63,780 nucleotides of DNA from Bacteroidales bacterium (GCA_045116675.1 JBGUMF010000004.1:1-63780); one strand, 5' to 3'; counted from the first letter of the stretch, positions 20,441 to 28,918 are shown. Numbers and translations are program-made. Notes: generated by a model from the letters alone, not told the origin.

Positions 20441-21757
20441 TTAGAAGGGCTTGGATTTGGGATCTGAAACAAAGATGTCCCTCACCTTGTTCCCATTGGA
20501 GAACTGGGCACTGTAGTGCAGCCTGCCGTCGGGTTTCCAGCATGACCATTTCCCTTCGCGCAGATGATTCTTGAATTGGCCCTGGAAGTGCTTTTTACCA
20601 TTATTGTAATATTCGGTGAAGGTGCCGTTGGGGATGTCGTGAACAAAATTCTGCTCACGCACCTTGACCTCCTGCACATTATAGAACACCCATTTGCCTT
20701 CTTTCAGGTCGTTGGCGTATTTCCCTTTGGCGACAATCTTCCCGTTTTGAGCATACTCGGTCCAAGTGCCGTTCTTGAGGTTGTCTTTATAGGTGCCCTT
20801 ACGCGACATCTTGCCGTTCTCCTCCCAGAAATAGGTGTAGGGGCCATTCCATTTGTTTTGCTTGTAGGTGATGATGTATTTCTGTTTACCGTCATCGTAC
20901 CAGCCTTGCCACTGGCCATCCATTTCACCCTCCTTGAAGGTGCCTTTGTCTTGGGTTTGGCCGTTGTGGTAATAAGCGGTCCAGAGGCCGTTTTCCTTGT
21001 CGTGGGCAAAAGGCCCTTCGCGCTGCAGGCGACCGTCCTCGTACCAAGCTTTCCAGATGCCTTCGCGTTTGCCGTTCACATAATTGCCTTTTTTCCAGAC
21101 TTTTCCGTTTTCATAATAATAGACCCACTCGCCGTGTTGCAATCCGTTTTCAAAATTGCCCCGGCTGCCGAGCGTGCCGTTCTCGTGGTAGAATTTCCAT
21201 TCGCCCTGTTGCAAGCCTTTCACAGACGAGCCTTCCATATCTTTCTGGCCGTTGCGGGTCCACCAGCATGCGTAGCCGTCCAACTCGCCCATCTTGTAGG
21301 AGCCTTCAAAATATTTGGCCCCGTCATCAAAGTATTCCGTCACAGGACCGTCCACGCTGTCAGCCACATACGTCACCTCTTTGAATAACTTGCCATTGGT
21401 GTGGTAAAACGTCCAATTACCGCTTCGCTTGCCGTTGGCGAACTGGCCTTTCGACTCCACTTGGCCAGACTGGTACCAGCTGGTGAAGGGCCCGTTTTCG
21501 GCGTTGTACTCCTGGGCCAGCTTTCCGTTGTCGAACCACACTCTCCACACGCCCACCTTCTTCCCGTCGCGGTAGTCGCCCTCGGTCCATTTCATCCCAT
21601 TGATGTGATAATAGACCCAATGGCCCTGTTCCAGGCCTTGGGCCTCCACACCCACTGACATCAGTTTGTTGTTTTTCCAATAGGTCTTAACCGTATCTTG
21701 GGCACTGACGGTCAAGCATATCCATGCCAAGAGGATTACAAGAGATAAGTTGCGCAT
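20441..21757 (-). CDS. secreted MORN-variant / YwqK-type repeat protein
   Basis: 438 aa. Signal peptide (...LTVSAQ), then about 16 tandem ~23-aa repeats of the form G.W..YY.NGK....G.Y.NG...G.W. Confidence 0.7.
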   Translation of the reverse strand: MRNLSLVILLAWICLTVSAQDTVKTYWKNNKLMSVGVEAQGLEQGHWVYYHINGMKWTEGDYRDGKKVGVWRVWFDNGKLAQEYNAENGPFTSWYQSGQVESKGQFANGKRSGNWTFYHTNGKLFKEVTYVADSVDGPVTEYFDDGAKYFEGSYKMGELDGYACWWTRNGQKDMEGSSVKGLQQGEWKFYHENGTLGSRGNFENGLQHGEWVYYYENGKVWKKGNYVNGKREGIWKAWYEDGRLQREGPFAHDKENGLWTAYYHNGQTQDKGTFKEGEMDGQWQGWYDDGKQKYIITYKQNKWNGPYTYFWEENGKMSRKGTYKDNLKNGTWTEYAQNGKIVAKGKYANDLKEGKWVFYNVQEVKVREQNFVHDIPNGTFTEYYNNGKKHFQGQFKNHLREGKWSCWKPDGRLHYSAQFSNGNKVRDIFVSDPKSKPF

Positions 21758-21779
21758 ATTCTCATTTATTAAAAGCGTG

Positions 21780-21787
21780 CAAAGATA
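21780..21787 (-). promoter_or_regulatory. -7 promoter box (TATCTTTG) for the MORN-repeat/MBL/folE operon
   Basis: Exact TAnnTTTG, 23 nt upstream of the ATG at 21757. Confidence 0.5.
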
Positions 21788-21840
21788 CTACAAAATCCGA
21801 TATTTTGGAATTTGTTCGTGGAAATGTTGGTTTGGGGGAG

Positions 21841-21947
21841 TTAAGGGGTGTTGGGAATTGGGCTTGGGGGGTGGGGGTTAGCCGTTAGCTATTGGCCGTT
21901 GGCTTTTGGCATATATATTTCTCTACTATAAACTCTAAACTCTAATC
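21841..21947. repeat. intergenic repeat element, copy A (left border of the C10 island)
   Basis: Contains the 27-mer gccgttagctattggccgttggctttt (21881-21907), identical to 27453-27479. It is flanked by related taagggg-ttggga-ttggg and ctct..taaactctaaactcta segments in the same order and orientation as copy B. Confidence 0.8.
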
Positions 21948-21948
21948 T

Positions 21949-23772
21949 TCATTGTTTCACCACGCGTTTTACCACTGCGCCGCTGTCCGTCTCCACGCGC
22001 AGCACATACACGCCCGCACACAACTCCCGAACATCCACCTCCGCCATGTTGGCATTCACATTCACTGTTTTCAACAGCTTCCCATATACATCGTAAAGCC
22101 GTATCCTATTCACTATTCCCTGTTCACTGACCACTGTAACCTGTGTCTGTGTGGGATTGGGGTAGATGTGAACGTAATCCTTTACGGTTGGTGTTTTGTG
22201 CAATGTGTTTTGGTCCGTCGTTAGCCTTTGGCTCCTGTTCTCCATGATTTGTGCTGGGTTAAAACGTGATGGTGTGTCATCACACGATGCGCATGGGGTG
22301 ATATAAGCATGAAAATCACTTCCTTGCGCAGCATGAAAACCATCGCGTAAAACGATTTCCTTGTGGGCGGCGTATTCGGAAGAGGCTCCCGAGGGGATTA
22401 TATGCCATGACGAGGGGAATGCACTGTTGTTGGCCGAACTTAGGAGCACCGCGGCTGCGTGGGGCACATTGTTGTACGATACCGGCGAGGTGTTTCCTTG
22501 TATATTGTAATAATCATCGTAATATTGCTCTAATGGCAAAATGAAATTGCAGTAGTCCTGCGTTGTGGCCGGATAGATGTTGAACACAGCCCGCTCCAGA
22601 TGATTCCAGTTATAGTTCCCGTCACCGTTGTGCTCAACAATACTGTCAATCGTACACCATGCATCAATTCCGCTTATATGCCCCCAATTGAAATGAAACA
22701 TGTCCGTAGCACTGTTATATCCGTCGCAGACAAAGGCATGGGCTCCCGTGTTATAATTGCTTGCATAATAGGACATTCCCGCATATAATACAGGCATTCC
22801 CATAATTAAATCTCCTTTTAGCAGATTTTTCCATGAAGACGTTGAATAATCCGATCGTATCAATCGTACAGCATCCGGATGATAACCGAAGGAGTCCACA
22901 AGGGCATTGCGCGCTTTAATAGGGGTGGTGAATGATTGACACGATAAACCTCCTATACAATAATCCATATCTGCCGCTTCTCCACAATCTGCCATCAAAC
23001 GGGCGATGGCGTTGCGCTCATTCTCAAAATTAGGGTTAATAAGAAGAACCCCATTAGAATCGATGTACAGTCCCAAAAGGTCCACCATATTACACCAATC
23101 ATACGGTTCCATCCTATTGGGTCTATAGATAGGATACTTCCAATAGTTCATGATTTGCGCCATGGCCGTGGCCACACAACCCGTGGGACATTTCCTTCCA
23201 CTCACGCTCGCACAAGAACATATGTGATAGGATTTTTTTACAAAATAATTAAAAGATTCACATGTGTTGTAGATATCTTTTGTTTGGTCCCACTTTGTAG
23301 TTAAAAAGGGTCCGTAAATTGTATTGGTTGTGCGGATAACTTCTGCGGACGGATCCAACAGCTCAGACCATTGCGGGTGCTCCTCTTGGTGCCGAAGGCT
23401 GTCAACCATATATCCAATGGAGAAACTGTAACCCCGAATAAAATATTTCAATCCCTCGGGAATGGAGACTGTGTCCGACAGCAGTCTTCCGCCTTCGGTG
23501 GTGTACATCAATACAGGAAGACAATTCTTCCACGAGGAAAGAACAACACTCAAACCGTTATCAAAGGATATTTCCCTCATCCTCAAATCAGGCCCGGACC
23601 GAAACTCAACAACCGTGTCAATTCGGGTTTCGTCCAGAGTATGATATTGCAGGTATCGTTGCGCAAAGTTCACGGCAGCCCTTCTGCTTTCCTCTATCGT
23701 GACGGCTGTCTGGGCTGACAGACACCATGAAGATGCAGTTATCAGTATTATAAACAAAATACTATTTTTCAT
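21949..23772 (-). CDS. C10 family (streptopain/SpeB-like) cysteine peptidase with N-terminal propeptide and T9SS C-terminal sorting domain
   Basis: 607 aa. Catalytic Cys block is GCVATAMAQIMNYWKYP and the His block is GAHAFVCDGYN. N-terminal pro-region is AAVNFAQRYL. C-terminal CTD is HIYPNPTQTQVTVV...VYVLRVETDSGAVVKRVVKQ. Confidence 0.85.
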   Translation of the reverse strand: MKNSILFIILITASSWCLSAQTAVTIEESRRAAVNFAQRYLQYHTLDETRIDTVVEFRSGPDLRMREISFDNGLSVVLSSWKNCLPVLMYTTEGGRLLSDTVSIPEGLKYFIRGYSFSIGYMVDSLRHQEEHPQWSELLDPSAEVIRTTNTIYGPFLTTKWDQTKDIYNTCESFNYFVKKSYHICSCASVSGRKCPTGCVATAMAQIMNYWKYPIYRPNRMEPYDWCNMVDLLGLYIDSNGVLLINPNFENERNAIARLMADCGEAADMDYCIGGLSCQSFTTPIKARNALVDSFGYHPDAVRLIRSDYSTSSWKNLLKGDLIMGMPVLYAGMSYYASNYNTGAHAFVCDGYNSATDMFHFNWGHISGIDAWCTIDSIVEHNGDGNYNWNHLERAVFNIYPATTQDYCNFILPLEQYYDDYYNIQGNTSPVSYNNVPHAAAVLLSSANNSAFPSSWHIIPSGASSEYAAHKEIVLRDGFHAAQGSDFHAYITPCASCDDTPSRFNPAQIMENRSQRLTTDQNTLHKTPTVKDYVHIYPNPTQTQVTVVSEQGIVNRIRLYDVYGKLLKTVNVNANMAEVDVRELCAGVYVLRVETDSGAVVKRVVKQ

Positions 23773-23776
23773 CGTT

Positions 23777-24313
23777 TCAGAAATTCAAGGTTATCCCCAC
23801 TCCATGGCGTGTCGGGCCGAACGACAGGGAAACAGGATAGGATTTTTGATTATAGGAAGAGGCAACACGGTCCAACTTCTTGTAACTGTCAAGAGTTAAG
23901 ATAAGAGCAGGGATTACTTCTAATATAGAAACCCCAAAACAAAAACCTCCAAAAATCATATCAATTAAATCCTCGAAATGTCGAGGCCCACCCACCATAA
24001 AATATTCAACATAAATCAAATCGCAAACCCAATATGTTGCTGCCGTCAGGCTAATTCCGCTCAGGACCCACAGTGGGATGGCGGCAATGAGTTCGCGGCG
24101 GGCTTTGCGATACAGGGTGAAGTCTTCGGAGGAAAGGGTGTTTTGCAAAGATGTCCTGTCCATCCTCATTCCGTTGTCGCCATTATAAAGGCGGCCGCGA
24201 ATACGCTCCAGATGAACAGGCGAAGTCTCAAGTGTTTTACCCAACGTGTCTTGGGCTGACAGGCACCATGTAGATGCGGTTATCAGTAATATGAACAAAA
24301 TACTTTTTTTCAT
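23777..24313 (-). CDS. small signal-peptide + 2-TM protein, paralogue 3 of an island-specific family
   Basis: 178 aa. Layout is signal peptide, ~55-aa soluble domain (LERIRGRLYNGDNGMRMDRTSLQNTLSSEDFTLYRKARR), two hydrophobic helices, and a conserved tail ...LDSYKKLDRVASSYNQKSYPVSLSFGPTRHGVGITLNF. Its stop is 4 nt before the protease ATG. Confidence 0.7.
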   Translation of the reverse strand: MKKSILFILLITASTWCLSAQDTLGKTLETSPVHLERIRGRLYNGDNGMRMDRTSLQNTLSSEDFTLYRKARRELIAAIPLWVLSGISLTAATYWVCDLIYVEYFMVGGPRHFEDLIDMIFGGFCFGVSILEVIPALILTLDSYKKLDRVASSYNQKSYPVSLSFGPTRHGVGITLNF

Positions 24314-24378
24314 CGTTTCAGAAATGTAAGTTTCTTTTATTGTGACGTTTATTGTCGTTCAATTCGAATTGTATTGAT

Positions 24379-24948
24379 TTAAAAACGGATTCCGATTCGC
24401 ATTGCGGGACCAGGGTAGCTAATGTCACAGCCTAGAAGAGCATACACACTTTTCCCATCTTTAAATCTATAATTGCACCCCGAAAAGAAGGAGATGTTGT
24501 AATAAACACCTCTTACCTCCTCCCAGCGTACTGGATTCTGGTCTTTTTTGCCCTGTGTGTACATGCCTACATTCCAATTAAGCATCAGCAACGGGGACCA
24601 TTTGAATTTTTTTAGCACAAGATAGCGCAAATTCAAGCCGGTTGAAAAACCAAGCGCATGGAATCCAGCTTCATGCTGGTACTGTCTGAAGGAAATGTTG
24701 TCGTATTTAAACTCCAAATCCAGTCCCACAACCAGATGTTGTCTGATAAGAATACCATGAGTTTCCCGGACAGACACACCCCGAGTGCATGAATTATTAT
24801 TTTTATAAAGACGAATTCCAAAACCGGCACCTACATCTATGGCATGATAGTATTCTATATGCTTCTTTGGGGGTTGGTTCTCCGATTGTGCCATACCGCA
24901 TATACATCCAAATAGAAGGATGAACAGGATTGAAATATTCGTTTTCAT
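24379..24948 (-). CDS. small outer-membrane beta-barrel-like protein
   Basis: 189 aa. Signal peptide, alternating hydrophobic/aromatic strand pattern, and C-terminal ...AMRIGIRF ending in Phe (OMP beta-signal-like). Confidence 0.5.
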   Translation of the reverse strand: MKTNISILFILLFGCICGMAQSENQPPKKHIEYYHAIDVGAGFGIRLYKNNNSCTRGVSVRETHGILIRQHLVVGLDLEFKYDNISFRQYQHEAGFHALGFSTGLNLRYLVLKKFKWSPLLMLNWNVGMYTQGKKDQNPVRWEEVRGVYYNISFFSGCNYRFKDGKSVYALLGCDISYPGPAMRIGIRF

Positions 24949-24951
24949 TGT

Positions 24952-25512
24952 CTAAAAATTCAGGGTTATCCCCACCCCATGGCGTGTCGGTCCGAAGGAC
25001 AGGGAAACTGGGTTCGTTTTTTGATTGTAGGAAGAAGCAACGCGGTCAATCTTCTTGAAACTGTCGAGTGTCAGTGTGATAGCAGGTGTAAAAAACACTA
25101 TTGAGACGAGTACGGCAAATCCACAAAAGCATCCACAGAAAATATCATCTACAGGATAAAACTCGTATTCGTCATACGGGAACGTCGTGTGTTTGAAATA
25201 TACATGGTAAGATATCGCTTCATACCCCCAATAGGTGGCCGCTCCCAAACAAATTCCGCTTAACGCCCAGAAAGGTATGGCAGCAATGTACTTTCGGCGG
25301 GCCTTCTGATAAAGGGCATAGTCATCTTGGGAAAGAATTTGACATAAAGATGTATTGTCTAATTTCATACCCGTTTCCCTATCACACAATCGGCCGCGAA
25401 CACGCTCCAATTGAACAGGCGAAGCCTCATGTGTTTTACCCAACGTGTCTTGGGCTGACAAGAACCATGTAGATGCGGTTATCAGTATTATGAACAAAAT
25501 ACTTTTTTTCAT
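24952..25512 (-). CDS. small signal-peptide + 2-TM protein, paralogue 2
   Basis: 186 aa with the same architecture and the same C-terminal ...VASSYNQKTNPVSLSFGPTRHGVGITLNF. Confidence 0.7.
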   Translation of the reverse strand: MKKSILFIILITASTWFLSAQDTLGKTHEASPVQLERVRGRLCDRETGMKLDNTSLCQILSQDDYALYQKARRKYIAAIPFWALSGICLGAATYWGYEAISYHVYFKHTTFPYDEYEFYPVDDIFCGCFCGFAVLVSIVFFTPAITLTLDSFKKIDRVASSYNQKTNPVSLSFGPTRHGVGITLNF

Positions 25513-25516
25513 CGTT

Positions 25517-26050
25517 TCAGAAATTCAAGGTTATTCCCACCCCGTGGCGTGTCGGCCCGAACGACAGGGAAACAGGATAGGATTTTTGATTATAGGAAGA
25601 AGCAACATGGTCCAACTTCTTGTAACTGTCCAATGTGAGAATGATGGCGGGTATGAAAGTTATCAGTGACATACCTAATGCTGAACAGCCCAAAATAAAA
25701 TAAACTAAAGATCCTCCGGCATCGGAATATGGTACATGAAAATAAGTGAGATCAATCATTGCACAATACCAGTTTGTTGCAAGTGTCAAGAAAACTCCAC
25801 TCAACGTCCACAGCGGGATGGCGGCAATGAGTTCGCGGCGGGCTTTCCGATACAGGGTGAAGTCTTCGGAGGAAAGGGTGTTTTGCAAAGATGTCCTGTC
25901 CATCTTCATTCCATTGTCGCCATTATAAAGGCGGCCGTAGTAACGCTCCAGATGTGTTGGGAAAGTACCTGTGGTGTCGTTTTTTGGATTTTGAGCGTAC
26001 AATGTGATCGACGACAGAGCCATAATCAACAACAAAATACTTTTTTTCAT
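25517..26050 (-). CDS. small signal-peptide + 2-TM protein, paralogue 1
   Basis: 177 aa with the same architecture. The start overlaps the stop of the upstream gene by 4 nt (ATGA). Confidence 0.7.
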   Translation of the reverse strand: MKKSILLLIMALSSITLYAQNPKNDTTGTFPTHLERYYGRLYNGDNGMKMDRTSLQNTLSSEDFTLYRKARRELIAAIPLWTLSGVFLTLATNWYCAMIDLTYFHVPYSDAGGSLVYFILGCSALGMSLITFIPAIILTLDSYKKLDHVASSYNQKSYPVSLSFGPTRHGVGITLNF

Positions 26051-27075
26051 CGTTCTGCCTCCTTTTCCTCCAATTGTTGAATCCTGTTTTCAAGGTCAAG
26101 AATATACAGCGTCATTTCTTCTATCTTCTTTAACAGCAGCATATTCATATCTCCGAGGTCCACACCGTTCTGTTGCACTTCCGAAGCGGTCGGTACCTCG
26201 GGCAGATGTCCATTGGATAGCACAAAATTTCTCAAATCCTGCAAATCCATCAAAGGGTAAGTCTTTTCAAAAACATAGTCGGGCCAGCAGGGACTGCCGC
26301 CAAGGGACACACGTACCTCCTTGGCACAAATATTGCCGTTGACCGTAAGCTTTGCCAATGGCGTGTTGGTTCCAATACCGACATTCCCGCTGTCGGACAG
26401 GAACAATCCATAATTGAATCCTGCGTTATAACAATCCCATACTTTCCAAAAATTCAGTCCAAAGCCGTCCGTGGCATTGTTCACGTATTCAATTCCCCAA
26501 GACCCGTAAGGACATGTATTGTTAACCTCGGATCCAAATAGAAGAGATCCATTGGTGGAGCCCGGAGCCTTAGCAGATGTACGTGAAATCAAGATGTTTT
26601 CATCCACAACGTGAATCTTCTGCTTGGGCTTTGACGTATTGAAACCCACATAACCGTTCGTGTCAACAACCAAGCCATGCCCATTATTCATGATTTTGAG
26701 GTTAGCCTTCTCACATTGATGAATGGAAGCCTCTATTCCTGATAGTTGAAAGACAAATCCATCATGTACAGTTGCACCGGTACTGCTATTTGTCAGTCGA
26801 AGGTTGTTGTTTGTTGGTTTTTGAAGTGGGTTATGTAAATGAAGGTTGGAAACAGGAGATTCTGTTCCAAGACCTATATAATAGTTATTTGAAGGCACAC
26901 ATACACGTGAGATATTATTAGTCTTGATTATGAAAGGGACGGCAGTGGTTGTCCCAATAAAAGAACTGGATGTGGCATTGCTGTTTCCTGTAAGTGACCA
27001 GTAGTTTGTCTGTGATTTAGCTGTCATAAAAGCAAAACAAACTAAAAAAAGGACAAACGTAAATTTTTTAAACAT
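26047..27075 (-). CDS. secreted tail-fibre-like protein with conserved C-terminal WPDYVF...HLP...LL.KIEE..LY module and terminal coiled coil
   Basis: Start set at the ATG at 27075 (MFKKFTFVLFLVCFAFMTAKSQ). N-terminus is W.LTGN...FIGT...NVGIGTNTPLAKLTVNG. The C-terminus CWPDYVFEKTYPLMDLQDLRNFVLSNGHLPEVP...MLLLKKIEEMTLYILDLE resembles the Bacteroidota 'tail fiber domain-containing protein' family as I remember it. Confidence 0.6.
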   Translation of the reverse strand: MFKKFTFVLFLVCFAFMTAKSQTNYWSLTGNSNATSSSFIGTTTAVPFIIKTNNISRVCVPSNNYYIGLGTESPVSNLHLHNPLQKPTNNNLRLTNSSTGATVHDGFVFQLSGIEASIHQCEKANLKIMNNGHGLVVDTNGYVGFNTSKPKQKIHVVDENILISRTSAKAPGSTNGSLLFGSEVNNTCPYGSWGIEYVNNATDGFGLNFWKVWDCYNAGFNYGLFLSDSGNVGIGTNTPLAKLTVNGNICAKEVRVSLGGSPCWPDYVFEKTYPLMDLQDLRNFVLSNGHLPEVPTASEVQQNGVDLGDMNMLLLKKIEEMTLYILDLENRIQQLEEKEAER

Positions 27076-27119
27076 GACATTGAATTTTATAGTAGTTGTT
27101 TTTTTTGTTTTTCGTGCGA

Positions 27120-27127
27120 CAAAGATA
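27120..27127 (-). promoter_or_regulatory. -7 promoter box (TATCTTTG) for the island operon
   Basis: Exact TAnnTTTG, 45 nt upstream of the ATG at 27075. Confidence 0.5.
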
Positions 27128-27157
27128 TACATTTCTTTTCGAAAATGGGACTGGAAA

Positions 27158-27179
27158 AAAGTGAGGGTACCATCACTTT
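27158..27179. promoter_or_regulatory. 22-bp near-perfect palindrome upstream of the island promoter (candidate operator)
   Basis: aaagtgagggtaccatcacttt has 10 of 11 positions complementary around a central GGTACC. It lies about 30-50 nt upstream of the -7 box. Confidence 0.35.
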
Positions 27180-27395
27180 CGTCAAATTTTTTCTGCATTC
27201 ACCCCATATATTGAATTTTCACCCCAAAAAGATGGAAATTTCATTTTTTTTGTCTAACAAATAGAAAAAGGTCCGGAAAAATCCTCTGGCCTTTTCGCAC
27301 ATGTATGCCTTTCGCGGCGGGCACACCTTTTCTTCGCGGCACACGTCTGCCGCGCCGCGATATTGTGTGCGGCGGCCTTATTCCTACAGATATGC

Positions 27396-27419
27396 AACGC
27401 CTAACGGCGTTTTTTTTTT
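27396..27419 (+). terminator. orphan plus-strand intrinsic terminator
   Basis: Stem aacgcc/ggcgtt with loop taac, followed by T10 and then directly by G9. No plus-strand ORF lies upstream of it. Confidence 0.5.
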
Positions 27420-27432
27420 GGGGGGGGGTGAT

Positions 27433-27509
27433 GTAAGGGTATTGGGAGTTGGGCCGTTAGCTATTGGCCGTTGGCTTTTTCTCTCAACTCTAAACTCTCA
27501 ACTCTAAAC
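27433..27509. repeat. intergenic repeat element, copy B (right border of the C10 island)
   Basis: Same 27-mer (27453-27479) and the same flanking segment order as copy A. It lacks the ~18-nt G-rich insert of copy A. The tail is ctctcaactctaaa x2. Confidence 0.8.
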
Positions 27510-27540
27510 GAAAGACGGCGGAATCTCCTTTCTTGTTTTT

Positions 27541-27562
27541 GAGACGCGATGAATCGCGTCTC
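27541..27562 (-). terminator. perfect 9-bp hairpin 3 nt after the stop of the Na+ symporter gene
   Basis: gagacgcga-tgaa-tcgcgtctc. There is no T-tract on the minus strand. Confidence 0.45.
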
Positions 27563-27565
27563 TAC

Positions 27566-28918
27566 TTACCCAATAATGCCGGAAATGATGATGATAATGA
27601 GGGCCAACGGGGCTAAATAGCGCAGCACAAAATAGTACAGCTCGAACGCCTTGGCCTTGATGGCACCACCGTTAGAGAGCTCGTCGCGCACTTCCGCCTT
27701 CGGGAAGAACCAGCCCAAGAAAATGGTCATCAGCAGGGCCCCAATGGGCATCAGGTAGGAAGCGGTGAGGAGGTCGAAGAGATCGAAGATAGTGCGGCTG
27801 AAGATGTGGAAATCTTTCAGGACGCCGAATGAAAGGGTGCAGAATACGCCGATGACGAAGACCAACAACGTGCTGACAAAGGAGGCTGTGCGCCGTTTCC
27901 AATGGAGCTCCTCCACGGCAAAGGCCACTAAGATTTCCAATAGGGAAATGGTGGAGGTGAGTGCGGCAATGCCCAGTAACACGAAGAAAATGACGGCGAA
28001 GATGGTGCCCGCTGGCATGCTGTTGAACACATTGGGCAGCACAATATACACGAGCTCCGGGCCGCTGGCCGGGTTCATCCCGAAGGCGAACACAGCGGGG
28101 AAGATGACGATGCCCGCTAAGATGGCCACCACAGAATCACAGCCGGCAATCCACAGGCTGGTGGGGAAGAGTTTGTCCTGCTTGCGGATGTAGGAGCCGT
28201 AGGTCACCATGGCGCCCATGCCGATGCTGAGAGAAAAGAACGACTGCCCCAGAGCGGAAAGTATGCAGGTGCCATTGAGTTTACTGAAATCGGGTTTGAA
28301 CAGAAAACGAAGGCCTTCCGCCGCTCCGTCGAGGGTGACCGAGCGCACGCACATGAGCAGAAGAAGCAGGAAGAGTATGGGCATCAGCACTTTGCTCACC
28401 TTTTCAATGCCTTTTTGAACTCCCATAGTGATGACGGTGGCGGTTAGCGTCAGGAATAACAGTTGATACAACAATGGCCAGAAAGAGCCTTGCGTGAAGT
28501 CGGAGAACAGGGACGTGATGGCTGCCGGGTCCTTGCCGGCAAGGCCGCCGCTACAGGAGAGTACGATGTAGTTGAGCGTCCAGCCGGCCACCACGCTGTA
28601 AAATGCGTAGATGAGGAAGGCGGCCACAATGCCGAACACGCCCAGCATCATCCAACCTTTGCTGCCGTTGCTCAACTTGCGGTAGGCACCCACCACATTG
28701 CTCTGCGAACGACGCCCGATGATGAACTCCGTCATCATCAGCGGGACACCTATCAGCATGACGAAAAACACGTACACTAACAGGAACGCGCCGCCGCCAT
28801 TTTGTCCCACCATGTAGGGGAAACGCCATATATTGCCCAAACCGACGGCACCGCCGGCCGCCGCCAAAATCGCACCAAGGTTGGAGGTGAAACCTCTCTG
28901 AGAGTTCGTTGTTGCCAT
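27566..28918 (-). CDS. sodium-dependent transporter (neurotransmitter:sodium symporter/SNF family)
   Basis: Family signature GLGNIWRFPYMVGQNGGGAFL and about 12 TMs. The ORF-track start at 28927 is a TTG, so I prefer the ATG at 28918 (MATTNSQ...). Confidence 0.9.
   Translation of the reverse strand: MATTNSQRGFTSNLGAILAAAGGAVGLGNIWRFPYMVGQNGGGAFLLVYVFFVMLIGVPLMMTEFIIGRRSQSNVVGAYRKLSNGSKGWMMLGVFGIVAAFLIYAFYSVVAGWTLNYIVLSCSGGLAGKDPAAITSLFSDFTQGSFWPLLYQLLFLTLTATVITMGVQKGIEKVSKVLMPILFLLLLLMCVRSVTLDGAAEGLRFLFKPDFSKLNGTCILSALGQSFFSLSIGMGAMVTYGSYIRKQDKLFPTSLWIAGCDSVVAILAGIVIFPAVFAFGMNPASGPELVYIVLPNVFNSMPAGTIFAVIFFVLLGIAALTSTISLLEILVAFAVEELHWKRRTASFVSTLLVFVIGVFCTLSFGVLKDFHIFSRTIFDLFDLLTASYLMPIGALLMTIFLGWFFPKAEVRDELSNGGAIKAKAFELYYFVLRYLAPLALIIIIISGIIG

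Follow-up and report, generated by a model that had tools for sequence, protein, structure and literature searches.

Small open reading frames adjacent to the genes of exported peptidases encode the inhibitors of those peptidases in both Bacteroidota and Gram-positive cocci, as described for Bfi, the staphostatins, and Spi (PMC2873492). In Tannerella forsythia, the potempins are described as inhibitors encoded immediately upstream of the KLIKK peptidases, which are secreted through T9SS, the type IX secretion system (PMC9890683). T9SS-secreted C10 (streptopain-like) peptidases are abundant in gut, rumen, and oral Bacteroidota. Few cases of self-protection against them during passage through the periplasm are known, Bfi and the potempins among them. 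A conserved but unannotated partner with a confidently predicted fold that matches no described structure would add a new solution to self-protection, and would offer an entry point to how peptidases are regulated in uncultured rumen Bacteroidales.

We analyzed a stretch of 63,780 nt from a Bacteroidales bacterium (GCA_045116675.1, JBGUMF010000004.1:1-63780; the whole stretch is called the window below), in which three tandem genes for small proteins precede the gene of a C10 peptidase. Adjacency to and co-orientation with a peptidase gene are features shared with the staphostatin/Bfi-type and potempin-type inhibitors. The three paralogues combine nearly identical blocks with a core that is diverged to saturation, and this three-zone pattern comes from recombination between old paralogues, not from rapid evolution of the core.

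A packed operon on a low-GC island

The genes form a tightly packed operon running from a fiber-like protein (gene A) through one to three small proteins to a C10 peptidase with a T9SS sorting domain (Table 1). Gene A is the first gene of the operon, with a stop codon that overlaps the start of paralogue 1 by 4 nt (ATGA), and 4 nt separate the end of paralogue 3 from the start of the peptidase gene. The peptidase matches Peptidase_C10 (E=4e-36), Por_Secre_tail (E=1e-12), and TIGR04183 (E=2e-14). The operon sits on a 5.5-kb island of low GC content, whose chromosomal site differs among genomes; the genes next to the island that were scanned are housekeeping genes. The two repeat copies flanking the island are ~88% identical in a local alignment with one 10-nt indel, and have in common the 23-mer GCCAACGGCCAATAGCTAACGGC, which occurs twice in the window, both times on the minus strand. 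Related repeats flank the island in three further loci (L001, L006, and L007) as well. Rfam gave no match on either strand of 21000-28000, and promoter and terminator scans gave no excess over shuffled expectation. Plus-strand antisense ORFs (such as 23699-23899 and 25445-25669) were rejected as genes, being shadows of the conserved tail or of the signal-peptide junction with no independent support.

Table 1. Features of the locus in operon order, with positions counted from the first nucleotide of the window.
Feature	Position	Strand	Description or evidence
Direct repeat, upstream copy	27443-27507	-	Imperfect, about 65-74 nt; brackets the low-GC island
Gene A, secreted, trimeric-fiber-like	26047-27075	-	342 aa from MFKKF...; mechanical ORF extends to 27198
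Paralogue 1	25517-26050	-	177 aa; family HMM E=2e-59; signal peptide type 1, soluble block AC, core class A, tail AC
Paralogue 2	24952-25512	-	186 aa ORF; signal peptide type 2 (peptidase-like), soluble block B, core class B, tail B
Signal-peptide protein of 189 aa	24379-24948	-	ORF; C-terminus ...MRIGIRF; within the array, 3 nt after paralogue 2
Relic of the 3' end of a family gene, with spacer (ACATTTCTGAAACG)	24314-24330	-	Abuts the paralogue 3 start on its upstream side; junction sequences
Paralogue 3	23777-24313	-	178 aa ORF; AF2 model pLDDT 89.9; signal peptide type 2, soluble block AC, core class C, tail AC
Paralogue 3 soluble-domain block, homogenized	24068-24197	-	Partner in paralogue 1 is 25808-25937
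Paralogue 3 core (hydrophobic helical hairpin and loop), class C	23891-24067	-	Mismatch counts, dS/dN, cross-locus identity
C10 (streptopain-family) cysteine peptidase with T9SS type-A C-terminal sorting domain	21949-23772	-	607 aa
Direct repeat, downstream copy	21872-21945	-	Begins 4 nt past the C10 stop codon

Gene A is kept upstream of the small gene and the C10 gene in four other loci (L001, L006, L007, and L009), and the L009 trio is 52% (gene A), 40% (small gene), and 45% (C10) identical to that of the window at the amino acid level. All 5703 homologues of gene A are unnamed or 'hypothetical'. A PDB sequence search matched it to the Bdellovibrio Bd2133 fiber (8ond, E=1.5e-6), and its AF2 model (pLDDT 75) gave Foldseek matches to 8ond, 8oml, and 8onc (E 5e-6 to 5e-4). 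The 189-aa protein is, from its sequence, likely to be a small outer-membrane beta-barrel protein; the one weak hint from profile searches is OmpX in NCBIfam (E=0.12), and the PDB sequence search found no match. Neither it nor gene A scored above threshold in Pfam, NCBIfam, and PADLOC scans.

A three-zone mismatch pattern between paralogues

We compared paralogue 3 with paralogue 1 at a constant offset of 1740 nt. The two differ at 6 of 114 positions in the tail block (23777-23890) and at 4 of 130 in the soluble-domain block. The core between these blocks has 88 mismatches in 177 nt (50% identity) and aligns without gaps. On the far side of the soluble-domain block, 22 of 44 positions (24198-24241) and then 40 of the final 72 (24242-24313) are mismatched. 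Those 5' 72 nt of paralogue 3, which differ from paralogue 1 at 40 positions, differ from paralogue 2 at only 3. Permuting the mismatch positions 5000 times never reached the observed window-to-window variance (0/5000), and the clustering is not due to chance.

Synonymous divergence between paralogues 1 and 3 follows the same blocks, with a dS of 0.10 for the soluble block, 0.40 for the tail, and about 2.3 (saturated) for the core; the signal peptide is saturated too. The spread among blocks exceeds 20-fold (0.10 vs about 2.3). For the core, dN is 0.62 and dS about 2.3 between classes, giving a dN/dS below 1 that is only an upper-level indication because of the saturated dS; within class A the values are 0.10 and 0.27, again with dN/dS below 1.

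An earlier description of this locus (the sequence-only reading) had reported the ORFs, the offset, and the mismatch counts, all of which we reproduced to the base (6/114, 4/130, and 3/72, and 88/177 for the core, where it gave about half). Its view of the core as length-preserved is right for paralogues 1 and 3 but does not extend to paralogue 2, which has 9 extra codons in the loop. It had also argued that uniform divergence after duplication is inadequate and had named recombination or gene conversion of the flanks as one possible cause, and both the spread of dS and the re-assortment of modules between loci bear this out. Similar synonymous divergence in flanks and core, which would have spoken against it, was not what the calculation gave (dS 0.10-0.40 vs ~2.3).

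Core classes and module exchange across loci

Module types were assigned in 13 gene copies from 7 loci. The cores fall into classes A (with a close variant, A'), B, and C, which are 98-100% identical within a class across genomes and 49-55% identical between classes, and they combine with four signal-peptide types, two soluble-block types, and three tail types. Copy number is one in L006 and L007, two in L001, and three in the window, L002, and L021. A scan of metagenome contigs with a narrow family alignment found three close loci only.

The core of paralogue 3 is 99-100% identical at the nucleotide level to those of L001 copy 2, L006, and L007, so its description as hyperdivergent, in the sense of fast-evolving, fails. 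The single copy of L006 matches L001 copy 1 at 100% identity on its 5' side, then L001 copy 2, also at 100%, on its 3' side. The switch falls within the soluble-domain block, which is a recombination hotspot. An exact chimera such as L006 could in principle arise by collapse in short-read assembly; the combination of a non-type-2 (paralogue-1-like) signal peptide with a class C core recurs in independent assemblies (P0002-P0004 and L007). On L002, an independent MAG contig that is 93% identical to the window overall, copy 1 differs from paralogue 1 of the window essentially only in the signal-peptide module. Because L002 carries the same three copies and the 189-aa gene, the array is not an assembly artifact of the contig studied here.

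History, rather than selection on the core, accounts for the pattern. The cores represent a small number of old, discrete classes (A, B, and C), saturated at synonymous sites relative to one another and each conserved in its own right. Homologous recombination between copies, by gene conversion and unequal crossing-over, has repeatedly homogenized and re-assorted the signal-peptide, soluble-block, and tail modules.

Array growth and a signal peptide shared with the peptidase

The signal peptide of the C10 peptidase differs from those of paralogues 2 and 3 at 10-11 positions in 66 nt (~85% nucleotide identity). Across multi-copy loci, nucleotide identity between the signal peptides of the peptidase and the small gene is 73-86% in the clade of the window and 78% in L025, compared with 41% in the single-copy loci L009 and L012. 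Copies after the first in multi-copy arrays bear the peptidase's own signal peptide, and the sharing is seen independently in a lineage that is 27% identical and whose partner belongs to a different peptidase family. A duplicated unit reaching from just past the signal peptide of the small gene to just past that of the peptidase would explain why every non-first copy has a peptidase signal peptide, and we infer this to be the best explanation of array growth.

Paralogue 2 and the 189-aa gene form a separable cassette. The pair is found behind the leader of gene A on a 1.6-kb contig (L023) that contains no gene A body, paralogue 1, paralogue 3, or C10 gene, and that departs from the window exactly after ACATTTC. 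The motif TTTCTGAAACGATG of the relic just upstream of paralogue 3 is also present at the junction of paralogues 1 and 2 and at the junction of paralogue 3 and the C10 gene. The cassette would have recombined into an array of A-C-C10 type via this shared junction sequence.

Protein family and predicted architecture

The small proteins belong to a small, unannotated family from uncultured Bacteroidales. A full HMMER search of 1.84 billion proteins recovered 74 representative clusters at E<=1e-3. The best Pfam matches of the paralogues were DUF5808 and DUF6705 (E about 0.1, 12.8 bits against cut-offs of 24-26), and none of 44 family members reached any Pfam family. NCBIfam gave the three paralogues a single sub-threshold match (E=0.012, 14.7 bits against a cut-off of 277), and PADLOC gave none. 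Against the PDB, the best Foldseek match of the paralogue 3 model had E=0.23, the listed matches being helical hairpins. Matches to ExbB/TolQ, AhlB, SipB, and colicin R-domains in PDB and BFVD (E 0.05 or worse) were set aside as generic long helical hairpins and uninformative, and profile matches to PDB sequences (a designed coiled-coil barrel and transmembrane helices) were rejected as compositional. The family that the sequence-only reading did not recognize is thus without a match in Pfam, NCBIfam, PADLOC, or Foldseek, well-characterized Pfam or TIGR families included.

The AF2 model of paralogue 3 places strands at residues 35-38, 41-44, 162-168, and 171-177, and helices at 62-105 and 112-158. 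The predicted architecture is a Sec/SPI signal peptide cleaved before an invariant Gln, a beta-hairpin, two helices of ~45 residues, a conserved helix, and a C-terminal beta-hairpin; the distal halves of both long helices are hydrophobic and are modeled as a helical hairpin with a hydrophobic tip. Q21 is invariant in the family, and an invariant Gln here is as the Q-rule for Bacteroidetes SPI substrates describes (PMC5837995). Conservation is lowest in the loop. All 44 aligned members have F178, and the C-terminal consensus is LxFGxTxxGIGLxLxF. The model broadly agrees with the earlier outline of a signal peptide, a small soluble part, two hydrophobic helices, and a conserved tail, the tail being refined to a predicted beta-hairpin with an invariant terminal Phe.

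The helical hairpin would anchor the protein in the inner membrane, with the conserved N- and C-terminal parts in the periplasm. The two hydrophobic segments have family-wide mean Kyte-Doolittle hydropathies of +1.4 and +1.7, and their simple Hessa sums lie between about -1.7 and +5 kcal/mol, most of them from +1 to +3; most helices of the neighboring SNF transporter fall between -2.7 and +1 kcal/mol. Because both segments are only moderately hydrophobic, integration into the inner membrane is not certain. Family-wide, the conserved Arg/Lys flanks are net positive and the loop is net negative, and an N-out/C-out topology, which puts the flanks in the periplasm and the loop in the cytoplasm, contradicts the positive-inside rule. 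A further argument against an inner-membrane location is that an amphipathic beta-hairpin followed by an invariant C-terminal Phe is better suited to outer-membrane targeting.

Association with exported cysteine peptidases

In several lineages the next gene downstream of a family member encodes an exported papain-fold cysteine peptidase, which is of the C10 family in three of them and C1B in one distant lineage. The spacer between the small gene and the C10 gene is 4 nt in the window, L001, L006, L007, L009, and L012, and 3 nt in L020. At the P0012 loci (40% identity), a C10 peptidase with a T9SS tail is encoded 4 nt downstream of the small gene; at the P0021 locus (34% identity), a C10 gene again lies 4 nt downstream and is cut by the contig end, which leaves the T9SS tail outside view. 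A member with 27% identity occurs as a tandem pair upstream of a signal-peptide-bearing Peptidase_C1_2, and in L025 the spacer to the C1_2 peptidase gene is 55 nt. Some members have no cysteine-peptidase neighbor: a PGAP1-like alpha/beta hydrolase follows P0035, a small Cys-rich lipoprotein follows both P0009 and P0010, and P0066 stands alone.

From this association, we infer that the small protein is a membrane-anchored, periplasm-facing partner of the peptidase. It would most likely bind the co-encoded papain-fold enzyme in the periplasm, as a cognate inhibitor or as a holdase during transit. Inhibitor or chaperone activity is suggested by gene context, homology lending it no support. A BLASTP comparison of mature paralogue 3 with the prodomain region of the C10 peptidase (residues 22-201) gave a best E of 1.6, and a Spi-type propeptide-analogue inhibitor was rejected for want of sequence similarity to the cognate C10 prodomain. 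We also rejected a lipocalin-like barrel of staphostatin/Bfi type, of about 110-140 aa, as the model is mainly helical and has no such PDB match; the PDB sequence profile search found no inhibitor, staphostatins included.

Taken together, recombination between paralogues, the proposed mode of array growth, and an inner-membrane, periplasm-facing partner of C10 acting as inhibitor or holdase make up the account that we consider probable, with considerable room for doubt. A bolder version, which we offer tentatively and would not ourselves bet on, is that the family represents a new and structurally unprecedented class of membrane-anchored, periplasm-facing cognate partners, acting as inhibitors or holdases, of exported C10 and C1B peptidases in Bacteroidales, in which recurrent duplication grafts the peptidase signal peptide onto each new copy. 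The grafted signal peptide may keep the partner and the peptidase on one export route, and the choice among interchangeable hairpin classes may determine distinct membrane interactions or hetero-oligomers.

Alternative explanations

Every locus set beside the window derives from a MAG or a short-read metagenome assembly, and the repeated blocks of 130-185 nt are of a size able to mis-join contigs. The pattern could therefore be a metagenome assembly artifact, in which reads of different strains were joined chimerically across short shared repeats. We consider this highly improbable, since the same three copies and module boundaries are present in L002, an independent MAG that is 7% different across 10 kb of flanking sequence, module combinations recur in JGI, ENA, and Logan assemblies, and reading frames are intact in all copies. 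Nor do we give much credence to strong diversifying selection on an exposed hairpin or loop (for antigenic, receptor, or immunity-specificity variation), a possibility raised by the sequence-only reading, combined with purifying selection on the flanks. It would fit a core that is the most divergent region between paralogues, a loop that is the least conserved segment family-wide, and the coexistence of several core classes in one array. Yet synonymous sites in the flanks are conserved as well (dS 0.10 vs about 2.3), a result that purifying selection on the protein cannot yield; core dN/dS is below 1 both between and within classes; each core class is discrete, stable, and 98-100% identical across metagenomes rather than part of a continuum of variants; and the cleaved signal peptide would put the loop in the cytoplasm. 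The likeness to antigenic variation or cassette shuffling is not supported either: the copies are complete ORFs with their own starts, and no silent cassettes, invertible repeats, or recognized recombinase ORF were found on the island; the search for inverted repeats in 21700-27600 gave one weak 34-nt pair only, with 71% complementarity.

Two other proposals concern function. The small proteins could be immunity proteins, with the fiber-like protein targeting competitors, the peptidase serving as toxin, and the tandem diverged copies being accumulated immunity genes. The genes are indeed small, exported, placed beside a secreted hydrolase, and arranged in tandem arrays of variable copy number; the low-GC island occupies differing chromosomal sites between genomes; other members adjoin other secreted hydrolases, such as a PGAP1-like lipase or esterase; and the fiber protein resembles Bdellovibrio prey-recognition fibers. 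We nonetheless find it unlikely. The family matches no annotated Pfam or NCBIfam family, immunity families included, and has no match in PADLOC, which covers anti-phage defense rather than interbacterial immunity. Neither C10 nor C1B peptidases are, to our knowledge, established as effectors against bacteria, and we know of no T9SS delivery route into competitor cells. The soluble block and tail, which would be expected to contact a periplasmic toxin, are the parts most homogenized between paralogues 1 and 3 and do not co-vary with the mosaic C10, and one partner peptidase (C1_2) has no secretion tail and is probably periplasmic in the producer. The immunity-like role first suggested can be kept only if it is taken to mean a cognate partnership with the adjacent peptidase. 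With a similarly low chance of being correct, the protein could be fully exported and located in or at the outer membrane via its C-terminal, beta-signal-like hairpin, as an anchor or assembly factor for the fiber protein or T9SS cargo; in an oligomer, the N- and C-terminal hairpins might form a small barrel with the helical hairpins beneath. An outer-membrane location would suit the invariant terminal Phe, the two amphipathic last strands, the marginal hydrophobicity of the helices, positive flanks inconsistent with the positive-inside rule for an inner-membrane hairpin, the putative small outer-membrane protein gene embedded in the array, and a gene kept beside that of a fiber protein with only a signal peptide, which needs some surface route. 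But the monomer has only four short strands, Foldseek found no structural similarity to TolC-like or other outer-membrane proteins, and two hydrophobic stretches of ~25 residues would normally be retained by SecYEG. The earlier comparison with outer-membrane proteins does not carry over to a beta-barrel, as AF2 predicts four short strands and two 45-residue helices.

Comparison with known systems

Among the closest parallels to the proposed peptidase partner are Bfi/Bti beside Bacteroides C10 genes and Spi beside SpeB, where a small gene also lies within a few bases of the C10 gene (PMC2873492, PMC3462683). There, as here, the small gene and the peptidase gene are apparently co-transcribed, and the small protein has an export signal, by which it would encounter the zymogen outside the cytoplasm. 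Bfi and the staphostatins are lipocalin-like beta-barrels of 116-138 aa (PMC2873492, PMC3462683), whereas the family described here is mostly helical; Spi is a propeptide analogue, whereas this family has no similarity to the C10 prodomain. Potempins, as described, are likewise small exported proteins (98-132 aa, against about 157 aa for the mature protein here), encoded in the same orientation directly upstream of a T9SS-secreted peptidase in Bacteroidota, with several paralogous pairs or copies in both cases (PMC9890683). In that same description they are lipoproteins anchored in the outer membrane (PMC9890683), whereas the present family has an SPI signal with Gln at +1. Unlike the potempins so described, it also has a long helical hairpin with a hydrophobic tip, terminal beta-hairpins, no match to PDB structures or sequences, and a cysteine peptidase (C10 or C1B) as partner, of which it is a putative inhibitor.

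Outer-membrane beta-barrel proteins with a C-terminal beta-signal resemble the family in the alternating hydrophobicity of the last strand and in a terminal Phe after a Gly-containing turn, and the aromatic-terminated C-terminal beta-signal of BAM substrates is present. They differ in having a closed barrel of at least eight amphipathic strands, which is not predicted here; the modeled monomer consists of two beta-hairpins, with its bulk in two long helices.

If the function of the family is unrelated to the peptidase, ordinary concerted evolution in a family of hypothetical proteins remains. The locus also offers a clear case, found in nature, of recombination between modules of a tandem family. 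Its hairpin classes are discrete, its crossover hotspot can be demonstrated, and non-homologous neighboring genes have a signal peptide in common in two independent lineages. Tandem families under concerted evolution likewise form mosaics with sharp identity breakpoints, variable copy number, and chimeric single copies, as in the blocks of ~95% identity that lie beside saturated blocks here. Unlike in such families generally, the units that re-assort here are modules of the protein, namely the signal peptide, the soluble block, the membrane hairpin, and the tail, and the signal peptide is common to the small genes and the non-homologous peptidase gene downstream.

Blocks of different ages within the tandem paralogues

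The pattern noticed in the sequence-only reading of the three tandem small-protein genes (paralogues 1, 2 and 3; 177, 186 and 178 aa) is real, and its counts are exact. Aligned to paralogue 1 at a constant offset of 1740 nt, paralogue 3 has 6 mismatches in the 114 nt of the tail, 88 in the 177 nt of the hydrophobic core and 4 in the 130 nt of the soluble block. It also switches partner as described, with 3 differences from paralogue 2, against 40 from paralogue 1, over the first 72 nt. Clustering of this kind was matched in 0 of 5000 shuffles of the mismatch positions, and L002, a contig from an independent MAG ('Bacteroidales bacterium RUI486') with 93% identity, shows the same arrangement.

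The causes proposed for this pattern included recombination and strong diversifying selection, with a resemblance to antigenic-variation families, and similar synonymous divergence in flanks and core had been named as a finding that would refute the interpretation. Block-wise Nei-Gojobori estimates between paralogues 1 and 3 gave the opposite: dS is 0.10 in the soluble block and 0.40 in the tail, against ~2.3 in the core (dN = 0.62), and is saturated in the signal peptide. Paralogue 2 is old in its soluble block (dS ~1.2), tail (0.7-0.9) and core (saturated), its sole young part being the signal peptide and linker, near-identical to those of paralogue 3. Such different block ages within one gene pair are a signature of recombination, and this half of the earlier interpretation stands. 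The selection half is unsupported: block-wise dN/dS gave no sign of positive selection on the core, being below 1 between core classes and 0.10/0.27 within class A (window versus L001, a related locus).

Table. Positions of genes and sequence features in the window.
Feature	Coordinates	Strand	Note
Gene A	26047-27075	-	mechanical ORF reaches 27198
Paralogue 1	25517-26050	-	ORF
Paralogue 2	24952-25512	-	ORF
189-aa gene	24379-24948	-	ORF
Paralogue 3	23777-24313	-	ORF
C10 peptidase gene, 607 aa	21949-23772	-	ORF
5' 66 nt compared, C10 gene	23707-23772	-	
5' 66 nt compared, paralogue 3	24248-24313	-	
5' 66 nt compared, paralogue 2	25447-25512	-	
Junction relic, 14 nt	24314-24330	-	directly upstream of paralogue 3 start
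Imperfect direct repeats (~65-74 nt) flanking the low-GC island	21872-21945 and 27443-27507		

Discrete cores in variable arrays

Close relatives are rare, with 8 found among 5.8 billion clustered proteins and 2 MAGs among 185,579 species genomes. Block typing of 13 copies from 7 loci resolved discrete core classes, A (with a close variant, A'), B and C. Cores of the same class share 98-100% identity across metagenomes, those of different classes 49-55%. They are joined to four signal-peptide, two soluble-block and three tail types. The window and L002 carry the array A-B-[189-aa gene]-C-C10, where C10 denotes the streptopain-family peptidase gene; L001 carries A'-C-C10; L020 and L021 carry A-B, then a copy with a type 2 signal peptide and an A' core, then C10; and L006 and L007 have a single chimeric copy, with a paralogue-1-like signal peptide (type 3 or 4) and a C core, followed by C10. 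L023 has B-[189-aa gene] after a gene-A leader, on a contig with no other gene of the island.

In L006 the gene matches copy 1 of L001 at 100% up to the soluble block and copy 2 at 100% beyond it. This marks a crossover inside the homogenised block, although short-read collapse could mimic this case. The combination of paralogue-1-like signal peptide and C core was found again in independent assemblies (P0002-P0004 and L007).

A signal peptide shared with the peptidase

The C10 signal peptide, MKNSILFIILITASSWCLSAQ, has ~85% nucleotide identity to those of paralogues 2 and 3, despite mature C10 being unrelated to the mature paralogues. At every multi-copy locus in the clade of the window, the peptidase type of signal peptide is found in every copy but the first, which has one of its own; at the single-copy loci L009 and L012, the small-gene and peptidase signal peptides are unrelated (41% identity). 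A distant branch (L025/L026, 27% identical to the window copies) has a tandem pair upstream of a signal-peptide-bearing Peptidase_C1_2, with one signal peptide common to all three genes at 78% nucleotide identity.

We infer that tandem duplication is the simplest account of this sharing. The duplicated unit would run from just past the signal peptide of the small gene to just past that of the peptidase, yielding repeated [tail-spacer-signal peptide] junctions that could then drive further unequal exchange; repeated junctions of this form are present, ~185 nt long and 93% identical. A relic of one such junction, consisting of the last codons of a family gene, its stop and the spacer (ACATTTCTGAAACG), precedes paralogue 3, and L023 and the window part ways exactly within it. 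The 189-aa gene travels with paralogue 2, and on L023 the pair occurs with gene A, paralogue 1, paralogue 3 and C10 all missing. The relic and the L023 breakpoint indicate that paralogue 2 and the 189-aa gene form a putative cassette, which entered an A-C-C10 array by recombination at the relic junction. In the P0009 branch (37% identical), locus L004 also has a tandem pair (208-1231; 159 aa and 179 aa), and tandem duplication is thus recurrent across the family.

The island and its other genes

From gene A to C10, the genes are separated by a 4-nt overlap and then by 4, 3, 65 and 4 nt. The 5.5-kb operon has a GC content of 44-45%, versus 51-53% in its flanks, and sits among housekeeping genes: FtsZ, FtsA, PurN and an SNF transporter border it at one end, MORN-repeat, MBL and FolE genes at the other. 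Within the window, the 23-nt core of the direct repeats occurs only at the two sites flanking the island. At L007 the repeat is present as several copies in tandem (1934-2127). At L001, L006 and L007 the island lies in another chromosomal neighbourhood, and no integrase or transposase was recognised among the island ORFs.

Gene A encodes a secreted protein that resembles trimeric fibres in both sequence and predicted model. Its PDB sequence match is the Bdellovibrio Bd2133 fibre 8ond (E=1.5e-6), and Foldseek matched the model to 8ond, 8oml and 8onc (E 5e-6 to 5e-4); the likeness in sequence and predicted fold is to the Bdellovibrio 'mosaic adhesive trimer' fibres (PMC10769870) and to T4 gp34. 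Its C-terminus is a conserved WPDYVF...coiled-coil module, and its family is very large (5703 matches), wholly unannotated in Bacteroidales. The 189-aa signal-peptide protein, which ends in ...MRIGIRF, resembles small outer-membrane beta-barrel proteins, with no family and no PDB sequence match.

The 607-aa product belongs to the C10 peptidases and bears a T9SS type-A sorting domain. It contains the streptopain-type (SpeB) motifs GCVATAMAQIM and AHAFVCDGY. Residues 457-494, after the catalytic domain and before the T9SS tail, match the '3-coathanger stack' (GCX_COOH) domain (NCBIfam NF045639, E=1.9e-12). The peptidase is itself mosaic between genomes: from the window to L001, residues 151-200 and 301-350 are only 46-56% identical and the C-terminal 200 residues 94-100% identical. 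In RUI486, ~1 kb of C10 is absent (L002 10542-11369 versus window 21975-22974) and the ORF stops after ~266 aa, short of the catalytic His region; the loss may be genuine (a natural deletion or pseudogene) or an assembly gap.

A family new to the databases searched

Searches of Pfam, NCBIfam and PADLOC placed the paralogues in none of their families. HMMER, run in full against 1.84 billion representatives, gave 74 clusters at E<=1e-3, whose named members are all 'hypothetical', one of them in a Lentimicrobiaceae MAG. The family is new to these databases, with a fold that is confidently predicted and unmatched: the AlphaFold2 model (pLDDT 89.9) has beta-hairpins at 35-44 and 162-177 and helices at 62-105 and 112-158, and Foldseek found no significant match in PDB or BFVD.

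In a 44-member alignment, Q21 and the terminal F178 are invariant, and the juxtamembrane motifs FxxYxxARRxYxASIPL and SxKxLxxIAxxYN and the C-terminal LxFGxTxxGIGLxLxF are conserved. Q21 fits the Bacteroidetes Q-rule for SPI substrates (PMC5837995). The two middle segments are hydrophobic, to a moderate degree only, and conservation is lowest in the loop. A cleaved signal peptide would place the N and C parts in the periplasm and the loop in the cytoplasm. In paralogue 3 (residues 62-158) and across the family, the hairpin flanks are conserved and Arg/Lys-rich and the loop is net-negative, so that this orientation runs against the positive-inside rule; given this and the moderate hydrophobicity, the compartment is uncertain.

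Candidate functions

The family is recurrently linked to exported papain-fold peptidases. L009 keeps gene A, the small gene and C10 together, at 52%, 40% and 45% identity, respectively; in the P0021 branch, too, only 4 nt separate the small gene from the C10 gene downstream; and the distant branch (L025/L026) precedes a C1B peptidase. Elsewhere in the family the neighbour downstream is a PGAP1-like hydrolase or a small lipoprotein (Cys-rich, and in place of a peptidase, after the P0009 pair), and some members are solitary. The peptidase link is thus strong but not universal.

In competing readings, the small proteins would confer immunity in antagonism, form an oligomer or anchor associated with the outer membrane, or vary in an exposed loop. 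Our best guess, a tentative one argued by analogy, is that the small protein may be an inhibitor or holdase cognate to the exported cysteine peptidase. Such a partner would be comparable to Spi, the staphostatins and Bfi, found beside peptidases (PMC2873492), and to the potempins (PMC9890683).
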